Shown here piece by piece: positions 36,095 through 56,323 of a stretch of DNA of 64,000 nt. The DNA comes from Candidatus Bathyarchaeia archaeon (GTDB lineage Archaea > Thermoproteota > Bathyarchaeia > Bathyarchaeales > Bathycorpusculaceae). The position numbers were made by a program, and so were the translations under genes. The notes beneath the pieces are model-generated. The model did no database searches, had not been told where the DNA came from, and saw only the letters and a program-made list of their open reading frames with translations. The first letter of the stretch is position 1. Every line of letters begins with the position of its first letter. Location: NCBI GenBank assembly GCA_049512935.1, contig JBEKWR010000006.1, positions 1 to 64,000 of the forward strand, read 5' to 3'.

Positions 36095-36169
36095 TGGAGC
36101 CAGGGGTCGGATTTGCACCGACATAAACAGCTCTGCAGGCCGTCGCTTTCTTTACTCAGCCACCCCGGC
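36095..36169 (-). tRNA. tRNA-Cys(GCA), copy A
   Basis: Cloverleaf: acceptor GCCGGGG/CCCTGGC, anticodon arm ACGGC-CTGCAGA-GCTGT, T-arm GTCGG-TGCAAAT-CCGAC, U73 and encoded CCA. Confidence 0.9.
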
Positions 36170-39654: not shown

Positions 39655-39729
39655 TGGAGCCAGGGGTCAGATTTGCACCGGCGTAAACGGCTCTGCAGGC
39701 CGTCGCTTCCTTTACTCAGCGACCCCGGC
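39655..39729 (-). tRNA. tRNA-Cys(GCA), copy B (T-stem mismatch)
   Basis: Same cloverleaf as copy A; T-stem GCCGG/CTGAC has a C-A mismatch. Confidence 0.8.
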
Positions 39730-44433: not shown

Positions 44434-44948
44434 TTTCTCACCTTCCTAGCCATGTTAATAATCTCAGTTGTAACATCCGTAGATATCCACATCACCTTTG
44501 CCAGTTTAGCAAAGTCTTCAACCAACTCATCGTAATTAATCAGTTTACAAACGAACGCTTCGTACAACACCATAACGGTGCCTCTATACTCCAAATCCCA
44601 ACTCTTCGCAATGGCTCGGGCTTCTTTATCATCGAGTATTATGAGTGCTTTTTCATCTTTTGCAAGAGTTAAAGCTTCAGCCTCGCCTAAACCAATCCTC
44701 ATCTCACCAATTAGCCTCTGCACTGTTTCATCTTGGCTCTCTGTTGGTTCGGTTACTGTGATCCAGCCTTCCTCAATGGCTTTTTCAATTTCTAAAGCAT
44801 CACTGGCGCCAAGCTCCTTTCCTTTGTCCACACTTTCAACCTTCACTGAGTGCGAGATTATGACTGTACCGTAAAGATCCCGTAGCAGTTTTAGCCTTCC
44901 GATCTTAGCTAAACAGATTAACGGTGACGTATTCGATGTTACTTTCAT
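44430..44948 (-). CDS. PIN-domain protein (DUF3368-like)
   Basis: SNTSPLI.LAKIG.L.LL, GEAEAL.LA, LDDKEAR, GT. Confidence 0.88.
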   Translation of the reverse strand: MKVTSNTSPLICLAKIGRLKLLRDLYGTVIISHSVKVESVDKGKELGASDALEIEKAIEEGWITVTEPTESQDETVQRLIGEMRIGLGEAEALTLAKDEKALIILDDKEARAIAKSWDLEYRGTVMVLYEAFVCKLINYDELVEDFAKLAKVMWISTDVTTEIINMARKVRK

Positions 44949-45027
44949 ACATTAATTATTGCGAAAATAAGATATTTAAATGTTAACAATCTACACAAAT
45001 GTTAACAAACTCATCTAGGCACATTAA

Positions 45028-45053
45028 GAGCGGTGGATGGGAATTGAACCCAT
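45028..45053 (-). other. tRNA 3'-end remnant (att-like, Cys-type U73)
   Basis: Minus strand: ATGGG-TTCAATT-CCCAT perfect T-arm, then CCACCGC-T. Confidence 0.65.
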
Positions 45054-45220
45054 AAAATTTGGTGGTTCAGGTTTTTGTGAAATTAATAGGTTTTTGACCG
45101 TTGAAAGTGCGGTTTTTTTCAAGCAATATTTATATCAAAAGCGCTGCAATTCGTACCAATTAAACTGTATGTCGCCGCGCACGGTCTGTTCGGTGCGATG
45201 GGAACCCTTGGTGTGAACGT

Positions 45221-46159
45221 ATGCCGTTTAAAACCGTAAAGAAGGATGCGGCAGATGCCTTAACGATAGAATGGGGTTTGCAAGTTAAAAATTACAAGTT
45301 AACCCTTGACAAGAAACGCTGCGTCAGCTGCCAAATATGCAGTTTAGCCTGCCCGAAAGAGGCGATAACAGTGCAGAAGCAGCCTAAAGTTGCGGGGGAA
45401 AAAGCCAAAAGAGCCAAAGTCGACGTTGACTTGGCGAAGTGCAATTTCTGCGGAATCTGCGACGTCACATGCCCCTACGGCGCAATCAGGGTTACTTTGA
45501 ACGACAAGCACGAGCTTAACCTTCTGGCGAAGGACAGCTTTCCACAGCTTGTCAGGGACATAAAAGTTGACACGCGCCACTGCACCAAAGAATGCGTCGA
45601 ATGCGAAACAGCCTGTCCCTTAGGGTTGATAACGGTGTCTAAAGTCGGTTTTGACGGCAAACCAGTGGAAAACGTTGATGCCCTGTCGCCGAGCGCTAAA
45701 GACCGCGTTCAGGTTAGCCTCGCCATCAAAAGCGAGTACTGCCCAACTTGCAGGGTGTGCGAGTTCAAATGCAGCCCAGGCACCATAAAAGTCAAGAAAG
45801 CCTACGACGGCGTAATCGCCATCACACAGGAAAAATGCCCAGAAGGCTGCACAGACTGCCTTGACGTTTGCCCAATCCCAGGCGCGCTTGTTCTCGAAGA
45901 AGACAAGAAAGTTCATGTTAACGATTTGTTCTGCACTTACTGCGGCGCATGCAAAAACGTTTGCCCCGTTCCCGAAGCCCTCATGGTTAAACGCACGGCA
46001 ATACACCACACACCCATCCATTCAGGCGCGTGGAACAAAGCCTTAGAAAGATTAACCTCGCCAGCTGACGCGGCTAAAGAGTTCCGAAGCGTGGCTGGTG
46101 AGAGCAGGCGCAAGGCAGTAGGTAAAAGATTCCCAGCCTTTGAGGAGACGGAAAAATGA
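45221..46159 (+). CDS. Polyferredoxin (MvhB/FwdF-like, about six 4Fe-4S motifs)
   Basis: Repeated CxxCxxCxxxCP motifs; directly upstream of hdrA. Confidence 0.9.
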
Positions 46160-46205
46160 GCACATCACAAACTTCCAAAAGATTCAACTTAGAGGAGATA
46201 ATGAA

Positions 46206-48713
46206 ATGAGCAAACCAGAAGCCCCAAAACAACCCGAAACCCAAAAACCAGAAGAACTGCGGATCGGCGTTTTCATCTGCCACTGCGGCATGAACATCGC
46301 AGGAACCGTGGACGTACCATCAGTCGCCGAGTACGCAAGAACCATACCCGACGTAGTCTACGTTAAAGAAAACCGCTACACCTGCGCTGACCCGGGACAA
46401 GAAGAAATCAGAAAAGCAATAAAAGAACAAAAATTGAACCGTGTCGTCGTAGCCGCTTGTAGCCCAAGGATGCATGAGCCAACATTTCGGAAAACCGTAA
46501 GTGAAGCAGGGTTAAATCCCTATGTGTTTGAAATGGCGAACATACGCGAGTTCGCTTCTTGGTGCCATCCCAATGCTCCAAAAGAAGCCACAGCAAAAGC
46601 AAAAGATATCGTAAGGATGGCTGTCGCCAAGGCGAGGCTGCTTAAGCCTCTTGAAACCATGGAGGTTCCTGTAACCAAAAACGCCTTGGTTATCGGCGGC
46701 GGCATTGCCGGCATCAACTCCGCTCTGGATTTGGCGAATATGGGGTTCCAAGTATACCTTGTCGAGAAGAACACGAGCATAGGAGGACACATGGCACAGC
46801 TCGACAAGACTTTTCCGACTTTGGATTGCAGCATATGAATTGAAGGACCTAGGATGGTGGAGGTAAATCGCCATCCTAAGGTCCAAGTAATAACCAATGC
46901 GGACATCCTCAGTGTGGAGGGGTTTGTAGGCAATTTCAAAGTTAAGGTCCGCAAGAACCCAAAGTACGTTGATGCCAAAAAATGTACTGGCTGCGGGGAA
47001 TGCAAAGACGCCTGCCCAATAGAATATCCCAATGAGTGGGATATGAACTTAGGCGTAAGAAAAGCCATCTCCATTCCGTTTGACCAAGCAGTGCCTCTGA
47101 TCTACTCGATAAACAGGGATTACTGCATAGAGTGCTTCAAATGCGTGGATGCCTGTGGTGCGCGTGAAGCCATCAACTTTGACCAAAAGCCCGAAGAAGT
47201 TGAATTGGACGTTGGAGCAATCATTGTAACAACGGGTTGTGACATTTATCTACCATATGATGACGCCACGTACGGCTATGGAAGATACGATAACGTAGTT
47301 ACAGCTTTGGAGTTTGAGAGACTCATCACAGCGGGCGGTCCAACAAGTGGACACGTAGTCCGCTCATCCGATGGAAAGACACCGAAAAGCGTTGCCATCA
47401 TTCAATGCGTCGGTTCAAGGGACGTAAACAAGTACGAATACTGTTCAGGTTTCTGCTGCATGTATGGGCTCAAAGAAGCCATCCTTCTGAAAGAACATTA
47501 CCATGATGACGTGGAAGTCTACATTTTCTACATGGATATGCGCACTCCCGCCAAAGGTTATGAAGAATTCTATCGACGAGCCCGTGAAAAGGGAATTACC
47601 TTCGTCATGGGAAAGCCGTCCCGAATAATGGAAGACCCAAAGACCAAAAATTTGATTATCCGAGCAGAGGACACGAAGCTGGGGCAGCCCATCGAAGTCG
47701 AAGCGGAGATGGTTGTGTTAAGCACAGCCGCCATACCGAGTAAGGGAGCCGAAGAATTGGCCAGCATCCTCCACATAACGCGAGGGTCAGACGGGTTCTT
47801 CATGGAAAGTCACCCGAAACTCAAACCAATGGACACGCCTATGGACGGAGTATTCCTAGCAGGTGCTTGCCAAGGACCAAAGGACATACCCTACAGCGTA
47901 GCCCAAGGAAGCGGCGCGGCTTCAAGAGCTGCCACCATTCTTTCGCAGCCGAAATGGAAGATAGAACCGATTGTCTCCATCGTTGACGTCGCCAAATGCA
48001 GAAACCCGAAAGCAAAGTGCGGTGTATGCGTGAAAAGCTGCCCCTTCGGAGCCATAACCGCGGTTGAGGGGCAACCAGCCCAGATCAACGCAGCTCAGTG
48101 CCATGGCTGCGGAACATGCGTTGCTGAATGCCCACAAGACGCCATAACCCAGATGCACTTTACGGATGAACAAATAACCTCACAAATCAGAGCCGCGCTG
48201 GAAAGGGACCCTGAAGACATTATACTGACGTTTATGTGTAACTGGTGAGGTTACGCCGGCGCGGACCGAGCGGGGACGAGCCGGCTTGAATACCCTCCGA
48301 CGACGAGGGCTATTCGGGTAATGTGCACAGGACGGGTAGACAGAGACTTCGTCATGGAAGCCTTTAGACTGGGAGCCGGAGGCGTATTGATTACCGCCTG
48401 CCATCTTCCCAACGACTGCCACTACATCTCTGGAAACGTCAGGATGAAAGCGCGCATGGATGCCTTAGCTGGCATGCTTCAAAAGCTTGGATTGAGCCCG
48501 CATAGATTCAGGGTTGAGTACGTTTCGTCAGCTGAAGGAGAGAAATTCGTCAGCATCATCAAGGAAATGACTAGTCAAATGCAAGCTTTAGGCAAAGACA
48601 AGATACTCGCGGAAAACGCAAAGCTTCGACCAACCTTAGAGAACATGCTGAAACGCAAAGCAGCCGCCCCAGCCCCTGCAGCTAAACCCGCCGATCAAGC
48701 ACCCGCAAAGTAG
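46206..48713 (+). CDS. hdrA: HdrA-MvhD fusion selenoprotein (835 aa; Sec at residues 211 and 681)
   Basis: Track ORFs 46140.., 46854.. and 48321.. are one frame broken only by TGA at 46836-38 ([18 protein letters not shown]) and 48246-48 (FMCNW-U-GYAGAD). HdrA motifs [30 protein letters not shown]; MvhD motifs MCTGRV, CHY. ATG 46206 has a GGAG RBS. Confidence 0.92.
46845..46884 (+). promoter_or_regulatory. Candidate Sec-recoding hairpin 6 nt 3' of the first UGA
   Basis: GGACCT-AGGATGGTG-loop(GAGGTAAAT)-CGCCATCCT-A-AGGTCC: 15 bp, one G-U, one bulged A. Confidence 0.7.
48255..48285 (+). promoter_or_regulatory. Candidate Sec-recoding hairpin 6 nt 3' of the second UGA
   Basis: GCCGGC/GCCGGC 6-bp GC stem, G-A mismatch, CG/CG, internal loop, CC-GAGC-GG. 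Confidence 0.5.
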
Positions 48714-49114
48714 GCAAAGAATTGGCTCCTGAGCCATTGCGGTTGGGTGGAAGGTTCTTGTGGCAGTATGGGCTGTTCGATACGGATATCTTTAGCCTTG
48801 GCGGTAAGCTCAACACCTAGAGCCTTGACTTTCTGGGTCTTGTCATCTATAATAGCTCACTTTCAACATGTATAATCAACTTATCTTTTTGTGAATTGGC
48901 TAACTGTTAAGAGTCAACTAATGTCAGGAAGTGCCTGCAGATCCTTTCCTCGATTATCTAAAGCACAAGTTTTAAAAACAAATTAAACAATACCAGAATT
49001 TGTCCTCTATTTAATTGCTGAAGGACTGGGAAGATAATCCGATCCAGATGGAAATGCCTCACAATTCTCTGTTTAATACTTATCTTAGTCGCAAGCTTAG
49101 GTTTACCCGCTAAA

Positions 49115-50215
49115 GTGAAAGCACAATCAAATGGATTAACCCAACAGATTCCGCCGATGGACTTACACCCCGTAACGACTCAGCCTCAGCCTGATGGCGG
49201 CTTCATTAAAGATTGTGGTGTTTCTCAAGACGATGTCTGCAGCTCAAGCTGGATGGTATGGAGGGATTACACGCAGATGGGCAACCCGCTAACTGAGAAA
49301 CTGGAGGGTGGCTTTGGAGAAACCGTCAACGGAACTGAGTTTACTCTGGGCTTCGGTCTAACCTCATTTATTCCTCCACCCCAAGCCCCAAATATTCCGG
49401 TGGGAACGATAAGCCAGACAACAGACAACCCATGCGGAATCTGGATAAGCTGCCAGTACGGAGCATTCCCAATCTGGCTCTACAATGCCACAGACGTGAC
49501 AACAAATTCAGGTCAGGTCACAACAGTCAATGGGTTGCCGAGTGTCACACTTAATGAGACATTCAGCAACATCCAGCTCGACACAGGCGGGCACGGTGAC
49601 TCCACAGTGAATCTTGTTGTAAGCCAACAAATAACTGGTAACGCCACCACCATGATAGCTCAAGTCAATGTCTACGCCGACCTGAGCAACATGCACTTTT
49701 ACCTGCCTGACGGCACAGAGATACCGCAGGGCACCGACTACTCACTTAACCTCCTGTGGATAACTGGATTATCCAATGGAACCGAGTCGGCACAGCTCGG
49801 ATACTTTACTGCTTATCCATATACAATCATCGGGAACTCATTATACTTCATTGTGAACGGCGAAGTAGGCAACATTGCAGGCATAACTTTAAGCGACAAA
49901 TACGTGGAAAGCCAAGGTGCAAATCAAATGTCAAGCCGCCAAGCACAAGTCCAGTTCATAAGCACTAACGCAACTGTGGGTGCACATCGTGCACCAGAGT
50001 GCCTCTGTCTCCAAACGTTCCCAAACCTGACCTACGGAGTTACTACTAGCGTGCAGAGCGACCCCACCATCTACATGAACCATGCATTAATGTCGACTCT
50101 TCCCCTAATCACTCTCATTGTTGTCGTGGCTGTTGTAATTGCTGCATGCGTCGTTCTTTTCCGATATCGAAAAAGATTCAGGAAGGGAGCTAAAAAAATA
50201 AATGCCGAAACTTAA
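49115..50215 (+). CDS. Hypothetical secreted/surface protein with C-terminal TM anchor
   Basis: Thr/Asn-rich ectodomain, C-terminal TM then RYRKRFRK; open frame extends upstream through a signal-peptide-like stretch to about 49034. Confidence 0.75.
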   Translation: MKAQSNGLTQQIPPMDLHPVTTQPQPDGGFIKDCGVSQDDVCSSSWMVWRDYTQMGNPLTEKLEGGFGETVNGTEFTLGFGLTSFIPPPQAPNIPVGTISQTTDNPCGIWISCQYGAFPIWLYNATDVTTNSGQVTTVNGLPSVTLNETFSNIQLDTGGHGDSTVNLVVSQQITGNATTMIAQVNVYADLSNMHFYLPDGTEIPQGTDYSLNLLWITGLSNGTESAQLGYFTAYPYTIIGNSLYFIVNGEVGNIAGITLSDKYVESQGANQMSSRQAQVQFISTNATVGAHRAPECLCLQTFPNLTYGVTTSVQSDPTIYMNHALMSTLPLITLIVVVAVVIAACVVLFRYRKRFRKGAKKINAET

Positions 50216-50302
50216 TGCTTAATGAAATCCCAAGCTTGTGGCTTGATAGTATTCTGGGACTTTTCTTAATCTAATCATTAAAATCACCCAACGCGCGTTT
50301 CT

Positions 50303-50475
50303 GAGCGGAATATGTCTATGTTGCCGAGTGAATACAGAAATCGCACTGCGAGAAAAATTATTCAGCAGCTGAAGGCATCAATCGGGGCGTCCCACGGCTA
50401 GGCGGTCATAGCATCGGACTTCAAATCCGGTGAGCCCGCAAGGTCTCGGAATCCGATTCCCCTTGGACGCCGCCA
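50303..50475 (+). repeat. Direct repeat copy 1 (upstream region + tRNA-Sec); partner 51341..51514
   Basis: Both begin GAGCGGAATATGT...CGAGTGAATACAGAAATCGCACT and end at the tRNA CCA. Confidence 0.9.
50386..50475 (+). tRNA. selC: tRNA-Sec(UCA), copy 1 (D- and T-stem mismatches; variant or pseudogene)
   Basis: 90 nt, anticodon TCA at 50421-23; 4 differences from copy 2. Confidence 0.8.
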
Positions 50476-50504
50476 CTATACCACTGCAAAATCTGGCAAG
50501 AAAT

Positions 50505-50942
50505 TCACTTGAAAGGATTTACGACGTTTAGAAAGTTATATTTCTTGAAGTCATCAACATTTTCTGTATAAATGCATTCCACTTTGTCATCTTTGGCTGT
50601 GACCGCCATGGCGCAGTCGAAAATCTTGCCTTTAGTCACTTTCATTTCCTTCGTTAACCTCAAAACGTCCATGACTGCATTCGATGCTGGATTGATCTTC
50701 TCGATTTCGCGGCATTCCCAAAAGTCGAGGCATACATTTACGGCTTCACTTAATTTCATTGGAGACTCCACTCTCTTGGGATTCGTGATTACCGCAAAAA
50801 ATTCATATATCACTTGTGCAGTCAAACATGCATCAAGTTTTCCAGTCATCGCATCCTCAATTACGGCGCTGGCGCGTTTCTGAAAAGGAGATGACTTGTT
50901 ATGGGCGTGAACAAGGATATTGGTGTCAAGTAATGTCTTCGT
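50505..50942 (-). CDS. VapC-like PIN toxin; full domain starts at an ACG codon (50942)
   Basis: Frame extends upstream of the track ORF to (M)KTLLDTNILVHA; ...EFFAVIT...IFDC.....IYTENVDDF. Confidence 0.8.
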   Translation of the reverse strand, partial: TKTLLDTNILVHAHNKSSPFQKRASAVIEDAMTGKLDACLTAQVIYEFFAVITNPKRVESPMKLSEAVNVCLDFWECREIEKINPASNAVMDVLRLTKEMKVTKGKIFDCAMAVTAKDDKVECIYTENVDDFKKYNFLNVVNPFK

Positions 50943-51168
50943 AGATTTCCTCTCGCGAAAGTTTCCCTTTTATTTTCCCTAAGTCAGGTGGATTCTTAAG
51001 TCTTTTAAGAATTCGGGCTGCTGCATCGCAGCTGCGTGCAATTTCCAATTTGGCTACCCCTTTCTCGACAACCTCGATGCGCAATACGTCGCCTTCAGCT
51101 AGTCCCAGCCGTTCTTGGACTTCGCGTGGGAGGTATACCTTATCTTTATAGAACGTGGTTTCAGTCAT
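50926..51168 (-). CDS. AbrB/VapB-like antitoxin
   Basis: KVYLPREVQERLGLAEGD; C-terminal LSREEIYED; overlaps the PIN gene. Confidence 0.85.
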   Translation of the reverse strand: MTETTFYKDKVYLPREVQERLGLAEGDVLRIEVVEKGVAKLEIARSCDAAARILKRLKNPPDLGKIKGKLSREEIYEDIT

Positions 51169-51424
51169 GCACTCATCATTTACCCAATAAGTTGGGCAAA
51201 ATATAAGCGTTTACCCAAAGACTCACCCAAACCCTTGTGAAAACGAGTAGCAAGAAGCTTGAAAGATTCGATTGAAAGATAAAGCCCGAAGGATAATTAA
51301 TGAACGCTGCAGAAGCTTAAAATGGGTCTACAGCGGTCCAGAGCGGAATATGTTTATTTTGGCGAGTGAATACAGAAATCGCACTTCGAGACAAATTGCT
51401 TCATAGCTGAAAGCACCAGTTGAG

Positions 51425-51514
51425 GGCGTCCCACGGCTAGGTGGTCCTAGCATCGGACTTCAAATCCGGTGAGCCCGCAAGGTCTCGGGGTCCGATTCCC
51501 CTTGGACGCCGCCA
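51425..51514 (+). tRNA. selC: tRNA-Sec(UCA), copy 2 (intact 9/4 archaeal-eukaryotic fold)
   Basis: 90 nt. Acceptor GGCGTCCCA/TTGGACGCC (9 bp, one C-U); D-stem GCTAGG-TGGT-CCTAGC; anticodon arm ATCGGA-CTTCAAA-TCCGGT; long variable arm with GCAA loop; T-arm GGGG-TCCGATT-CCCC; G73 and CCA. Confidence 0.95.
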
Positions 51515-51574
51515 TCGCTCACAGTTTCAAAACAGCTCAGAATGAGTTCTCAATAACCAGCATGATGGGCTCGG

Positions 51575-52006
51575 TTGTCACAAGACATAAAAACAATTGA
51601 GGATACCTTACTGGGTATGAAGAGCCGTTCGCTAAAGGGCGAATCCCCGTCTCAGCTGATAGATGCGAGAATCAAGGAGCTTGGCGACTGGCGAGGCGAG
51701 ATGCTCTTACACCTCCGTGCTCTCATCAAGCAAGCCGATCCCGGAATCGTTGAAGAATGGAAGTGGGGGATTCCTGTGTGGTCTCACAATGGATTGGTCT
51801 GCACAGGCGAGACGTACAAGAGCGTCGTGAAGATGACTTTCTCCAAGGGTGCCTCGTTGAAAGACCCCTCGCACCTCTTCAATTCGAGCCTCGAAGGTAA
51901 TACAAGGCGCGCCATTGACTTCCATGAGGGTGACGAGGTTAACGAGAAGGCTCTGATTGCTCTTGTTCGTGCAGCCGTGGCTGCGAATGCCTCGACCCGT
52001 GTCTAG
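51575..52006 (+). CDS. DUF1801 (YdhG-like) protein
   Basis: DWRGE.L..LR.LI..ADP.I.EEWKWG.PVW...F.KGA.L.DP..LFN.SLEG. Confidence 0.88.
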   Translation: MSQDIKTIEDTLLGMKSRSLKGESPSQLIDARIKELGDWRGEMLLHLRALIKQADPGIVEEWKWGIPVWSHNGLVCTGETYKSVVKMTFSKGASLKDPSHLFNSSLEGNTRRAIDFHEGDEVNEKALIALVRAAVAANASTRV

Positions 52007-52064: not shown

Positions 52065-53396
52065 TCACGTCACTGTTTTCAAAACGGTGTCTAACCTCTC
52101 TGCTGCTGTGGTGATTTCGTTTTTTTGTATTCCTATGCTGGCGTCGAAGTTGATGTAGGATGAGACGTACTGTGGGCAGCACACTCCGAAATCGTTTTTT
52201 TCCAGCGCTCTTGCGCCGTTGACCCTTGCCGCGTACAAGGCTTTGCCTATTTTCTTGGCGTCTCTTCCATCTAGCGTCATAGCCACGGATATTGGATTGT
52301 AAACATTCAGTATTCGCTGTCCGTGCCTCTCCGCCACCGCCTTGAGGGATGATTCAAGGAACCGCCTGTTTTCTTCCTGCTGGGTTCTCAGCTTCTCGTA
52401 CCCGTCTAATCCTATCGACAGTACGGCTGCTAGGAACTGCGCTATGGGAGCGGCTGTTGCCCTTCCCGCGTAGATTTCAGACACGGCGTCTAGGAATTCT
52501 TCGTTGGGCGCGGCGACTATTGCTCCTCCGACTGGGGTTAGGAAATTCTTGTCTGTGCTCTGGATTATGGCGTCCACGCGTCCTGCGTCGATTGCGCCTC
52601 TTACGAGTTTCATGATTTCGCGGCTCTGCACTCCGAAGGCGTTGTTTATGATATGCGGCACTTTCTTCTCCTGTGCGATCTTTGCGATTTCTTTGATTTT
52701 ATCTGGTTCTCTGGGTGAAAAGAAAGTGGTTGTTGACAGAATCGCGGCGGTATTTTCGTTAACTGCTTTTTCTATCTCTTCTGGGGGAACGTTCACTGCG
52801 TCTCCGCAGACTTCTCCTGCCACTATTCTTTCTTGAAGACCTGCAAGATGAATCGCCTTCAGTGGAGTTTTAAGGTCAATCTGTGGGTAAACAACCTCTT
52901 TTCCCCCAGTTTGGTTTCTTGCGGCGCACAAGGCAAGAGCAAGCGTCATTCCTGTTGCCACAGGAAAAACCACCGCCTTCTTGATGTTTGGAACCCCGAA
53001 CCTTTTCATGGCGTCAGTTGCCAATTTGTTAGCGAAATAATACATGAGAGACCCACCTGCCGCCTTAGGCTGGGCTTCGGTCAGGTCACCTGACCTTCCT
53101 ACCCCATGATGAAATCCAAATGCCAGCTTTGAAACCACTGGAGAAGCAACCCTGCCCTCGCGTTCGCCTAAGAAAACTGCTTTGCTGTCCTTGTCCGAAT
53201 CCATTGCAGACAGCAGATTCAGCAGCGTTTCGATTTGGCTGTCTTTCCAGCCTTCTTTTGGTATTCTTCTTTGCTCGAAAAGTAGTTTTATCGACTGGGA
53301 CTCTGTGCCCAGCACTGTCAAGCCCCTTTCAAGTATGCTCTTTGGGATTGTGTCCTTCAACTTATCAAACGGCAACATAAAACATACCTTTAGCAC
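52065..53396 (-). CDS. spcS: O-phosphoseryl-tRNA(Sec) selenium transferase (SepSecS)
   Basis: GEREGRV, HGVGRSGDL..AQPKAAG, PVATGM, HIINNAFG, IQSTDKNFLTPVGG (PLP Lys), YAGRA. Confidence 0.95.
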   Translation of the reverse strand: MLKVCFMLPFDKLKDTIPKSILERGLTVLGTESQSIKLLFEQRRIPKEGWKDSQIETLLNLLSAMDSDKDSKAVFLGEREGRVASPVVSKLAFGFHHGVGRSGDLTEAQPKAAGGSLMYYFANKLATDAMKRFGVPNIKKAVVFPVATGMTLALALCAARNQTGGKEVVYPQIDLKTPLKAIHLAGLQERIVAGEVCGDAVNVPPEEIEKAVNENTAAILSTTTFFSPREPDKIKEIAKIAQEKKVPHIINNAFGVQSREIMKLVRGAIDAGRVDAIIQSTDKNFLTPVGGAIVAAPNEEFLDAVSEIYAGRATAAPIAQFLAAVLSIGLDGYEKLRTQQEENRRFLESSLKAVAERHGQRILNVYNPISVAMTLDGRDAKKIGKALYAARVNGARALEKNDFGVCCPQYVSSYINFDASIGIQKNEITTAAERLDTVLKTVT

Positions 53397-54127: not shown

Positions 54128-56323
54128 GTGTCGCAGAGTTATCCTTACCTGCTTATAATGTGCGGATTGCCTAGTTCAGGAAAGACCACCATCAGCAAAA
54201 ACGTCGCCTCCCTGCTTGAGGACAAACACGAGATATCGACCATGGTCATCAGCTCGGACGATTTTCGGGACATGCTCTCGTACAGCTCCAAAGGATTCAA
54301 GCCTGAGCGGGAAGCGTCGGTGAAGGCTCTTTATGAGAAGGCGATTGCAACTGGTTTGGAAGCTGGTTTTCTCGTCATCAGCGATGACTTAAACTACTAC
54401 AAATCGATGAGGAGCGAGCTTAGGCAGATTGCTAAACGGTCAGGCTCCGACTACGACATTGTCTTTGTTGATACACCCGTTGAGGTAGCCGTCAAATGGA
54501 ACCAAGAACGAGGGTCGCCGATACCGCAGTCCCTCATTGAGGAAATCAATCAGAAACTTGACCCGCCCAAAGGCGACTACAAATGGGACACTCCCCTCGC
54601 CGTTGTCGACCCAAGCAAGCAAAGCTTAGAGGGAATCGCCAGTGCCATCGTTACTGCGGTTCTGAAGAGGCTGGAAAACCCGATTAGGTCCAAGCCCAAA
54701 AAAGTTGTGGAAGACGAGAAATCACTGAGGGCAAGAGGCATTGAGCGGGAAACCCGAAAAGCCATGATGGAGGTCATGACGCGGTACAAGAACCCGGACT
54801 TGGGCATTTCTCTTTCCGCCATCAGAAAAGAAGTGGTGCACAAGGCGCTGGCGGACGGCTTGAAGCCTGTAGATGCGGTCGAATTGTTCCTCAGGGAAGC
54901 CAATGCGGTCGCAAAAAGTTACGCCGTGACTGAAGGCAAGGGCCTCATTCCCGTTCATGTGGGTCTTTTCGGGCATGTTGACCACGGCAAGACAATGATT
55001 GCCCGGCAGCTAACTGAGAAACCTTCGACGGCTGCATTGGACAAGGCACCGGACTCCGCCCGCCGTGGAATGACGCTGGACATGGGCTTCTCCGCTTTCA
55101 CCTTAGGTCCGTACCTGGCTACTCTCGTCGACTTGCCGGGGCACTTCAGCTTGGTCAGGCATGCGGTGGCGGGCGCCAACATAATTGACGCGGCGGTGCT
55201 GGTTGTGTCCGCCGACCTCGGATTGCAGGTTCAGAGCGTGGAGCATTTCGCAATAATCAAAGACGTGGGAATAAAGAATCTTGTAGTTGCCCTCAACAAG
55301 GTTGATTTGGCGTCCAAAGAGAGAATTGATGAAGTCAAGACAAAAGTCAAGCTTCTCCTAAAGGGAACTCCATACGAGAACGCAAAGATTGTGGAGGTCT
55401 CAGCCTTAACTGGCAAGGGAATTGATGAACTCAAACGCGCCTTGCAAGATTCCATCAGTCCACCCATTCGCCAGTGGAATGGCCCGTTCAAGATGCCTAT
55501 CGACCACGCATTCACCATAGCCGGAGTAGGAACTGTCTTAACTGGCACGATTCACCGTGGGAAAGTTAAGGTGAAAGACACCGTTGAAATCAAGCCCATC
55601 GACAAAAAAGGTCAAGTGCGTTCGCTGCGGTCATTCGGCGAGGACAAAGAGGAAGCTATCGCTGGAGACAGGGTAGGCGTCGCCGTCAAAGACCTAAAAC
55701 CTGATGACGCTCACAGGGGTTACGTAGCCGTTTCTCCTGGCTCCATCAGTTCTACCCGCCGAGTGATAATCGAGTTGGAAGTGGACAAGTACTATCTGCG
55801 TCCGTTGACGCCGTACAGCGATGTAGATGTGTTTGTTGGGTCTTATGAAGTGCTGGGAAACGTTGTGCCCGGCGCCGTGGAAGACGGCAAGTTCGTTGTG
55901 AAGCCGTCGGTGAAGGCTCCTGAAAAATGCCTAGTTTACATAGAACTCAGACAACAAGTCGTGGCGGAAAGAGGAGACCACATGCTCTTGATGAACCCTG
56001 GACTCCAAGCCCGCGAATTCCGAATAATCGGCGGAGGAAGAATCACTGAGACAGACAGCAAACTGGAATTCTTCTCAAAAAAGACCAAACAGGGAACTGC
56101 AGGACAAAAAAGAGAAGCCGACGAGTACTCAGTGACGGGTCTCTTTGGCACCTCGGAAGCTGCCTCCAAATTCGTGGGAAAACAAGTTGTTACAGCAACG
56201 GGAGTTACAGGCGAAATCAGGGCTTCGCTGTCATTGGGCGAAGTTTCAGTCAAGTTCAAAGAACCCGTGCACGAAGGCGAAAAAGTATTTCTCTACGTCT
56301 ACAAGAAGTTAAAAATCAAATAG
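54128..56323 (+). CDS. selB: Fusion of L-seryl-tRNA(Sec) kinase (PSTK) and Sec-specific elongation factor SelB
   Basis: N-terminal ~270 aa: CGLPSSGKTT, SSDDFR, DDLNYYKSMR, WN.ERG, YKWDTP. C-terminal: GHVDHGKT, RGMTLDMGF, DLPGH, NKVD, PIDHAF, VRSL, FRIIG and a short archaeal-type domain IV. Confidence 0.92.
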   Translation: MSQSYPYLLIMCGLPSSGKTTISKNVASLLEDKHEISTMVISSDDFRDMLSYSSKGFKPEREASVKALYEKAIATGLEAGFLVISDDLNYYKSMRSELRQIAKRSGSDYDIVFVDTPVEVAVKWNQERGSPIPQSLIEEINQKLDPPKGDYKWDTPLAVVDPSKQSLEGIASAIVTAVLKRLENPIRSKPKKVVEDEKSLRARGIERETRKAMMEVMTRYKNPDLGISLSAIRKEVVHKALADGLKPVDAVELFLREANAVAKSYAVTEGKGLIPVHVGLFGHVDHGKTMIARQLTEKPSTAALDKAPDSARRGMTLDMGFSAFTLGPYLATLVDLPGHFSLVRHAVAGANIIDAAVLVVSADLGLQVQSVEHFAIIKDVGIKNLVVALNKVDLASKERIDEVKTKVKLLLKGTPYENAKIVEVSALTGKGIDELKRALQDSISPPIRQWNGPFKMPIDHAFTIAGVGTVLTGTIHRGKVKVKDTVEIKPIDKKGQVRSLRSFGEDKEEAIAGDRVGVAVKDLKPDDAHRGYVAVSPGSISSTRRVIIELEVDKYYLRPLTPYSDVDVFVGSYEVLGNVVPGAVEDGKFVVKPSVKAPEKCLVYIELRQQVVAERGDHMLLMNPGLQAREFRIIGGGRITETDSKLEFFSKKTKQGTAGQKREADEYSVTGLFGTSEAASKFVGKQVVTATGVTGEIRASLSLGEVSVKFKEPVHEGEKVFLYVYKKLKIK

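Follow-up and report, generated by a model that had tools for sequence, protein, structure and literature searches.

Hairpins at a fixed distance from both selenocysteine UGA codons of a bathyarchaeial hdrA-mvhD gene: candidate insertion signals within the reading frame

In the reviews, sections on archaea and eukaryotes place selenocysteine (Sec) insertion sequence (SECIS) elements in untranslated regions (UTRs), leave only bacterial ones within the open reading frame (ORF), and give no archaeal SECIS-binding factor as known. The survey of Sec-using archaea in a 2026 review comprises Methanococcales, Methanopyrales and Asgard archaea only. Here we describe hdrA-mvhD, a selenoprotein gene in a 64,000-nt stretch of DNA from a Candidatus Bathyarchaeia archaeon (assembly GCA_049512935.1, contig JBEKWR010000006.1, positions 1–64,000; hereafter the window), in which each of two in-frame UGA codons is followed 6 nt later by a hairpin inside the coding sequence. 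This observation is confirmed and lies far beyond chance. Judged from sequence, the hairpins probably represent in-ORF, bacterial-style Sec insertion signals that work with an archaeal machinery in which PSTK is fused to the archaeal SelB (aSelB), a reading to which we assign a probability of about 0.6.

Bacterial SECIS elements (bSECIS), such as those of E. coli fdhF and bacterial hdrA, are likewise in-ORF stem-loops directly past the Sec UGA, one per UGA. Their small loop carries G, usually at one of its two leading positions, a feature that the present hairpins show in part. In contrast, the host here belongs to the archaea and uses the SepSecS/PSTK pathway, the SelB it encodes is archaeal in type, PSTK-fused and devoid of the C-terminal winged-helix domains that read bSECIS, and its elements have much longer stems (15–16 bp; 31 nt), start at +6 and match no Rfam SECIS family. 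The Sec redefinition element (SRE) of SELENON/SEPN1 is also a coding-sequence stem-loop just past a Sec UGA, starting about 6 nt after it. It works together with a 3'-UTR SECIS and SBP2, whereas no UTR SECIS is detectable here and each UGA has its own element. The euryarchaeal SECIS (GAA_A type; Methanococcales, Methanopyrus) serves HdrA, MvhD/VhuD and SelD with the same type of aSelB; unlike the present hairpins, it is described as lying in the 3' UTR (5' UTR for one gene); it has S-S pairs as well as a GAA_A bulge, and several UGAs can depend on a single element. Among Asgard archaea, whose elements are lokiSECIS or resemble those of eukaryotes (eSECIS-like), several Sec codons occur in the selenoprotein genes hdrA and vhuD/mvhD as well, but the account in PMC4989117 has a single AUGA..GA kink-turn past vhuD acting on up to six UGAs about 2 kb away; the locus described here has one proximal hairpin per UGA and no such element at a homologous position. 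The passages on archaeal SECIS and selenoproteins in PMC4989117, PMC11227280, PMC13188914, PMC9499178, PMC8762117, PMC8211752, PMC5424206 and PMC2248747 contain no coding-region SECIS in an archaeon, archaeal elements being assigned to UTRs.

The locus would constitute a minimal archaeal Sec system that is complete in itself, with one or two selenoprotein genes, a short element for each UGA, and adjoining machinery. It bears on the evolution of SECIS position between domains, and makes the question of the archaeal SECIS reader directly testable with two RNAs of 31–40 nt and one fusion protein. Short in-ORF elements combined with an archaeal/eukaryotic-type SelB would also be of interest for engineering site-specific Sec insertion.

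The two UGA codons and their hairpins

The host genome comprises 2.30 Mb in 49 contigs, the window being its contig 6, and a genome search found a single full-length hdrA-mvhD. The protein contains FlpD (Pfam, 4.8e-45), Fer4 and FAD domains, with Sec encoded at codons 211 and 681 by in-frame TGA. The gene and the elements in question are:

46206–48713, + strand: hdrA-mvhD, HdrA fused to an MvhD/FlpD domain, selenoprotein gene of 835 codons (ORF, translation, Pfam)
46836–46838, + strand: TGA1 (Sec211); 28 orthologues have Cys (TGC/TGT) at this position of the alignment
46845–46884, + strand: hairpin 1, 40 nt, stem of 15–16 bp with one bulged A, 7-nt loop
48246–48248, + strand: TGA2 (Sec681), in the CNWU motif of the MvhD part; Cys in all Cys-type orthologues
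48255–48285, + strand: hairpin 2, 31 nt, GCCGGC/GCCGGC base of 6 bp, 5-nt loop

Both sequence and folding reproduce the original prediction in its coordinates, in the spacers (ATTGAA after TGA1, GGTTAC after TGA2) and in their equal length of 6 nt. The loop begins 22 nt past TGA1 in hairpin 1 and 19 nt past TGA2 in hairpin 2, the upper part of the latter consisting of 2+2 bp broken by a G/A and a GA/GA internal loop.

Both stems are more stable than their controls, including those that preserve the encoded protein. The 60 nt starting from TGA1 have a minimum free energy (MFE) of -25.8 kcal/mol, with z = -5.44 against dinucleotide shuffles (0/200 as stable) and z = -4.5 against synonymous-codon resampling (3/5000 as stable). 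For the 60 nt starting from TGA2 the MFE is -26.5 kcal/mol, with z = -2.33 (5/200) and z = -2.7 (47/5000), respectively; hairpin 2, which had been called the weaker of the two, is thus weaker thermodynamically when set against its G+C-rich background. A scan covered 3733 genomic TGAs with open frames on both sides; among those of them that also have coding-like sequence on both sides, TGA1 and TGA2 rank first and second in the stability of the 60 nt downstream.

TGA is an ordinary stop codon in this genome as well, ending 329 of 1173 long open frames, and a local signal must therefore mark both Sec codons. Neither the scan of the 3733 TGAs nor a relaxed, N-terminal scan of 244 TGAs with a short upstream frame uncovered a further convincing selenoprotein gene; only the two TGAs of hdrA look real. 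As these scans added no TGA and selD is of the Cys type here, hdrA-mvhD appears to be the sole selenoprotein gene of the genome.

Linkage to UGA and conservation of the hairpins

The orthologue set comprised 30 genes from 40 relatives, with TGA at both sites in the window and one other genome and TGC/TGT in 28. Downstream of site 1, the 60-nt energies of the 28 Cys orthologues range from -6.2 to -17.2 against -25.8, and the hairpin-1 stem is absent; downstream of site 2 they range from -9.9 to -22.8 against about -26, without the GCCGGC helix. Five Cys paralogues located in tandem with Sec-type genes give the same picture, lacking hairpin 1 at site 1 (-6.9 to -10.0) and the hairpin-2 helix at site 2 (-14.6 to -24.0). 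Stems equally present in Cys homologues had been named as a finding that would speak against a role at UGA. The stem is missing from these homologues at site 1 and the helix at site 2, although at site 2 the raw energies of Cys and Sec forms overlap, a few Cys forms being about as stable yet without the helix. Only the TGA form has the residue changes K>R, D>E and NI>KV (site 1) and S>G and L>R (site 2). They supply stem nucleotides, which at site 1 agrees with the earlier suggestion that the codons of local residues complete the stem.

An order-wide pattern search of 401 genomes detected TGA at site 1 in 16 of them, all from one family and spread over four genera. Together with the genome known before, 17/17 TGA-type genomes carry hairpin 1, and TGA2 with hairpin 2 occurs in 14/14 loci readable to site 2 (of the others, two are truncated and one is frame-broken). 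Hairpin 1 is also found in 41 metagenomic TGA-bearing orthologues. Among full-length orthologues with TGA, both hairpins are present in 17/17. When the whole gene was compared between 17 Sec-type and 27 Cys-type sequences, the only windows folding much better in the Sec type were those after the two TGAs, with Sec-minus-Cys differences over 60 nt of -13 to -16 kcal/mol at TGA1 and -8 to -10 kcal/mol at TGA2, against a gene-wide mean of -0.3 (standard deviation 2.8). Several genome matches of the hdrA pattern were discarded as not hdrA, and the TGA of a paralogue listed with one TGA (genome G129) proved to be its ordinary terminal stop.

This survey also bears on whether the TGAs are decoded as Sec at all. 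A pseudogene, a gene split into three products, or read-through with a standard amino acid would be compatible with TGA being a common stop codon in this genome. Such accounts are highly improbable, given that 17/17 full-length Sec-type genes from the four genera contain exactly two TGAs, both at conserved Cys positions, and no other stop or frameshift. Moreover, complete Sec machinery adjoins hdrA-mvhD, SepSecS is present in 15/16 TGA-form genomes of the order sample, and this genome has no second hdrA-mvhD copy.

The Sec-type genes share 77–93% DNA identity (17 genes), and their synonymous variation is lowest at the hairpins. Third-position diversity is 0.056 over codons 684–696 (hairpin 2), the lowest of all 13-codon windows of the gene, and 0.127 over codons 215–227 (hairpin 1), the second lowest, compared with a gene mean of 0.327. 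Variation within hairpin 1 is concentrated in the loop, where codon 221 occurs as six different codons, and 92.1% of cells are paired across 31 distinct sequences. In hairpin 2 all 10 pairs are invariant across 14 distinct sequences, with wobble positions varying just beyond the stem. The hdrA-mvhD hairpins exist, are tied one-to-one to UGA and are under strong purifying selection at synonymous sites.

Constraint of this kind might have a cause unrelated to recoding, such as mRNA stability, a translation rate suited to Fe-S assembly, a DNA palindrome serving as a protein-binding or restriction-type site, or a bacterial SECIS relic carried in by gene transfer. The stems do contain palindromic DNA (CCTAGG in hairpin 1, GCCGGC in hairpin 2), and their conservation is unaccompanied by covariation; there are bacterial hdrA-mvhD genes whose SECIS has the same register, and both domains have the polyferredoxin-hdrA-mvhD cluster. 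We nonetheless regard this class of explanations as improbable. Two sites of one gene show a strict link to TGA, which is seen again in selD; bacterial homologues with TGA only at site 1 lack hairpin 2 (7/7); and in orthologues of such divergence a relic would not remain the part of the gene with the least synonymous diversity.

Several features of the Sec-type loci were recorded alongside. In five of them (L086, L095, L096, L097 and L100; genera g21 and g22) a Cys-type hdrA-mvhD paralogue lies directly behind the Sec-type gene and has a hairpin in its 5' leader and a separate AT-rich region resembling a promoter; the window's genome has the Sec form only. The arrangement is reminiscent of the Sec/Cys isoenzyme pairs of Methanococcus. 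Two Sec-type genes are broken, one by a 1-nt insertion in the hairpin-1 loop (L073) and one by a frame break about 450 nt past TGA1 (G141; L092/L074), which may be assembly indels or real decay. Bathyarchaeial Sec-type hdrA-mvhD contigs also occur in metagenome-assembled genomes titled Limnocylindrales, Nanoarchaeia, Sulfotelmatobacter and Acidoferrum (L064, L072, L082 and L087); the titles are probably wrong labels or binning errors, because the two that were checked (G009/L087 and G274/L082) match the genus and family of the window.

Search for a distal SECIS and comparison with bacterial hdrA

The 3' flanks of the 17 orthologues (-60 to +600) were searched with our own patterns, built after the published GAA_A and AUGA..GA models. 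A euryarchaeal GAA_A-type element was found in 0/17 3' flanks, 5' UTRs being covered by the Rfam scan only. The AUGA-type pattern (AUGA..GA/AA quartet, upper stem of 7–15 bp, loop of 8–20 nt, near the 3' end of the gene) gave loose matches in 6/17 flanks, at non-homologous positions from +93 to +403, and none in 11/17; an Asgard/eukaryote-type SECIS at a homologous position was not found among these flanks. Rfam SECIS families gave no match at E<=10 across 44900–51600 on either strand. No conserved block was present in the 17 3' flanks, where the stop is directly succeeded by oligo-T runs in three of the genera. The canonical UTR SECIS that could by itself account for read-through, and whose presence the original prediction had set against its own proposal, was thus not detected by any of these searches.

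Two candidates from the flanks were rejected. When the 17 flanks were aligned, five g21/g22-type loci had a block in common, which proved to be the 5' region of the tandem Cys paralogue. In L086, a GTGA..GA-like match corresponds to the 5' leader of that paralogue. One metatranscriptome run, containing 5% of the sampled words, was also set aside as transcript evidence, as it gave nothing firm on the transcript or 3' end of the gene. At 85% likeness it yielded contigs of relatives only (4/65 at >=99%), including a 229-nt contig that crosses TGA1 and a 646-nt contig that crosses TGA2 with 72 differences, and nothing that extends 3' of the stop.

Metagenomes were scanned for hdrA of the TGA type, which gave 71 loci:

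Bathyarchaeial form: 41 loci, long hairpin
Sister form (L146): 1 locus, TGA with only the upper 11-bp stem, starting at about +12
Second hdrA-mvhD type: 13 loci, 7-bp hairpin with 4-nt loop
Nitrospiria-like type: 2 loci, similar short hairpin
Chance matches: 13 loci, not hdrA
Too short: 1 locus

The second type is bacterial, because genes for an OmpR-type regulator and the epsilon subunit of an F-type ATPase are found on its contigs. It has Sec at site 1 only, with Cys and no hairpin 2 at site 2 in 7/7 loci reaching that far, and its 7-bp hairpin begins at +15. The loop nevertheless occupies nt 26–29, counted from the T of TGA, in the Bathyarchaeial, second and Nitrospiria-like types alike. 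Since the loop register is the same, hairpin 1 is positionally equivalent to the bacterial hdrA SECIS, extended down to +6.

In the bSECIS model given in the Fig. 2 legend of PMC13188914, the loop has 3–9 nt, the upper stem 4–16 bp and the UGA-to-loop distance 16–37 nt, with G at loop position 1 or 2 and, in many cases, G or U after it. Both hairpins fall within its position and geometry, lying in the ORF from +6 with loops of 7 and 5 nt at distances of 22 and 19 nt. Agreement with the loop G is partial for both hairpins. Hairpin 1 has the loop sequence A-G/A/C-G-T..., in which GT is invariant, and its A-A-G-T variants have G among the two leading nucleotides only if the weak closing G·U is counted as loop.

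The same comparison bears on another possible role of the hairpins, that of SRE-like helpers which slow the ribosome or hinder the release factor while the true SECIS resides in a UTR, in a neighbouring gene or in trans. A 6-nt spacer recurs at three different UGAs. Such a spacer places the stem at the mRNA entrance, the geometry of read-through and frameshift stimulators. The aSelB has no known mRNA-binding domain, hairpins 1 and 2 share no motif obvious for one binding protein, and the SEPN1 stem-loop downstream of UGA is documented as a read-through stimulator in the account of PMC2248747. We still consider this, the chief competing explanation, rather unlikely. The 17 orthologues show no conserved 3'-flank structure, with oligo-T at the stop in three of the genera; they have no GAA_A or consistent AUGA..GA element and no Rfam SECIS match; and elsewhere along the gene the Sec type nowhere exceeds the Cys type in structure. 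Furthermore, the stems of L146 and of bacterial hdrA start at about +12 to +15 with the loop register kept. The stem start shifts while the loop stays in place, which suggests a role for the apical part rather than a roadblock at +6. The +6 stem that had been predicted is present at both UGAs, but with these relatives in view its base is not the most conserved feature. The proposal that this archaeon uses UGA-adjacent signals is supported on all three counts by which it could have failed, namely codon controls, Cys homologues and a UTR SECIS.

Sec machinery, selD and the proposed decoding

The machinery for Sec synthesis and decoding lies downstream of hdrA-mvhD:

51425–51510, + strand: tRNA-Sec, anticodon TCA (Rfam 64.5 bits, ARAGORN)
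52065–53396, - strand: SepSecS, O-phosphoseryl-tRNA(Sec) selenium transferase (Pfam SepSecS, 2.5e-116)
54128–56323, + strand: PSTK-aSelB fusion, 731 aa (Pfam, phmmer)

The fusion protein consists of a KTI12/PSTK-like kinase (residues 8–220) and a complete archaeal SelB (276–722), with no extra C-terminal domain. Its SelB half aligns end to end with Methanococcus maripaludis SelB (4ac9; phmmer, residues 20–475 of 482), and SelB winged-helix domains are absent from the genome at Pfam cut-offs, the best scores being 12.1 bits for SelB-wing_3 and 13.9 bits for SelB-wing_2 (cut-offs 23.2 and 22.3), which bears out the earlier statement that this SelB lacks the bacterial winged helices. A PSTK-SelB fusion was already reported for Bathyarchaeota by Mukai et al. 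(PMC8762117), whose passages on it mention neither SECIS nor HdrA. One Archaeoglobus genome is also reported to have such a fusion. Across genomes, the Sec island comprises the selenoprotein gene(s), tRNA-Sec, SepSecS and PSTK-SelB, and no other conserved gene was seen in it among the genomes compared. tRNA-Sec lies downstream of Sec-type hdrA-mvhD in 11/19 loci scanned.

Within the order, SepSecS (E below 1e-100) occurs in 22/401 genomes, namely 15/16 TGA-hdrA genomes and seven others. selD with one in-frame TGA was found in 5/5 searched of these seven. In four genomes of families f6 and f7, a hairpin of 13 bp closed by a 4-nt loop starts exactly 6 nt past the selD UGA (z = -2.1 to -3.0 against synonymous resampling), and one-sided changes in it preserve pairing. 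Looking for the same stem at other TGA genes had been proposed as a check; the scans of the window's genome yielded no further convincing gene of this kind, and the +6 stem does occur in these selD genes of other families. A second group of Sec-selD genes (G317, G266, G159 and G156) has, instead of a compact hairpin, a structure of about 88 nt from +9, present in part in Cys-type selD too (z = -2.1 to -3.5 in G266, G159 and G156, against -0.7 and -1.9 in two Cys-type genes).

We propose that each in-ORF stem-loop would mark the UGA just upstream for Sec instead of termination, as bSECIS do, the remaining machinery (tRNA-Sec, SepSecS and PSTK fused to aSelB) being of archaeal/eukaryotic type. 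With UGA in the A site, a stem starting at +6 would stand intact at the mRNA entry of the small subunit, and its apical part, with the loop 19–22 nt past UGA, would then be exposed. This apical part could recruit or retain the PSTK-aSelB·GTP·Sec-tRNA(Sec) complex, directly or via a further factor; alternatively, the hairpin could slow the ribosome, allowing the PSTK-aSelB complex to outcompete the release factor.

A number of observations weigh against the hairpins being bacterial-style insertion signals. There is no known reader, and the aSelB lacks SECIS-binding winged helices; according to the sections of reviews on this protein, in vitro experiments showed no binding of archaeal SelB to its cognate SECIS. 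No sequence motif common to hairpins 1 and 2 is evident, and 2/14 variants of hairpin 2 have no G in the first two loop positions. A SECIS of divergent sequence could have escaped the pattern searches described above, be it in a UTR or at another place in the operon. Covariation, which had been suggested as a further check, did not materialize: no pair shows compensatory, two-sided changes in 31 distinct sequences of hairpin 1 or 14 of hairpin 2. Support from the alignments thus takes the form of conservation, and invariance could equally reflect a sequence-specific or DNA-level constraint. All Sec-type hdrA-mvhD genes form one clade (SH-aLRT 97 in a tree made by a quick method, in which one badly cut row, X_L133, with a branch length of 10 was disregarded), so that the hdrA evidence amounts to one evolutionary origin seen many times. 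Finally, selD of G266, G159 and G156, which belong to the Sec-type hdrA clade, has no compact proximal hairpin (60-nt energies -9.6 to -12.9), and the selD group without it is the main internal evidence that the short +6 hairpin is not universal. The case for in-ORF insertion signals rests on thermodynamics, invariance and the strict TGA link, not on covariation or repeated origins.

A broader and more tentative possibility, which we hold to be doubtful, is that Bathyarchaeia possess a third kind of Sec decoding, in which archaeal/eukaryotic Sec synthesis is combined with in-ORF bacterial-style hairpins read by PSTK-aSelB or by the ribosome. Such a system would have neither an SBP2-like adaptor nor winged helices; the kinase half or domain IV of aSelB would tether the factor to the hairpin, and the whole would travel as a compact island of selenoprotein gene, tRNA-Sec, SepSecS and PSTK-SelB. 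If so, SECIS position (ORF or UTR) would not be fixed by domain, and the element may stand for an intermediate stage linking bacterial and archaeal/eukaryotic systems.

A short motif recurs between the hairpins and the tRNA. CCTAGG is present in the 5' arms of hairpin 1 (46848–46853) and of the f6/f7 selD hairpins (L192–L194, L199), the tRNA-Sec D-stem (51436–51451) reads GCTAGG/CCTAGC, and CTAGG is absent from hairpin 2. tRNA mimicry by the hairpins was considered and set aside; the match is possibly a coincidence. PSTK binds the D-arm of tRNA-Sec, and if not coincidental the common CTAGG hints at a shared protein contact.

The tRNA-Sec gene has a degenerate relative about 950 nt upstream (50386–50471, + strand; Rfam 46.7 bits against a gathering score of 47) with mismatches in its D- and T-arms. 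The insert between the two contains two small minus-strand ORFs, one of which weakly matches a MazE/AbrB-type antitoxin (24.5 bits, slightly below the cut-off of 24.7); it looks as if the tRNA-Sec gene was duplicated around an inserted toxin-antitoxin-like cassette. PSTK-SelB fusions of 739–767 residues adjoin selD and SepSecS in G317, G039 and G128. Sec-type selD with a GUSCK motif occurs in several Bathyarchaeia lineages (L192, L193, L194, L199, L102, L202–L204), four further matches of the selD pattern (L200, L201, L206, L207) being frames other than selD. Bathyarchaeia selenoproteomes range from one to at least two genes, and three genomes pair Sec-selD with Sec-type hdrA-mvhD.

Upstream of hdrA-mvhD lies one further gene of interest:

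45221–46159, + strand: polyferredoxin gene (Pfam Fer4 families)

It is probably in the same operon as hdrA-mvhD. A polyferredoxin upstream of hdrA was also detected by tblastn (37–54% identity) in 11/16 metagenome contigs searched, 10 of the bacterial type and L146. Elsewhere in the window, two tRNA-Cys(GCA) genes (36095–36169 and 39655–39729, - strand), 3.5 kb apart, flank a glycosyltransferase/GNAT gene cluster.

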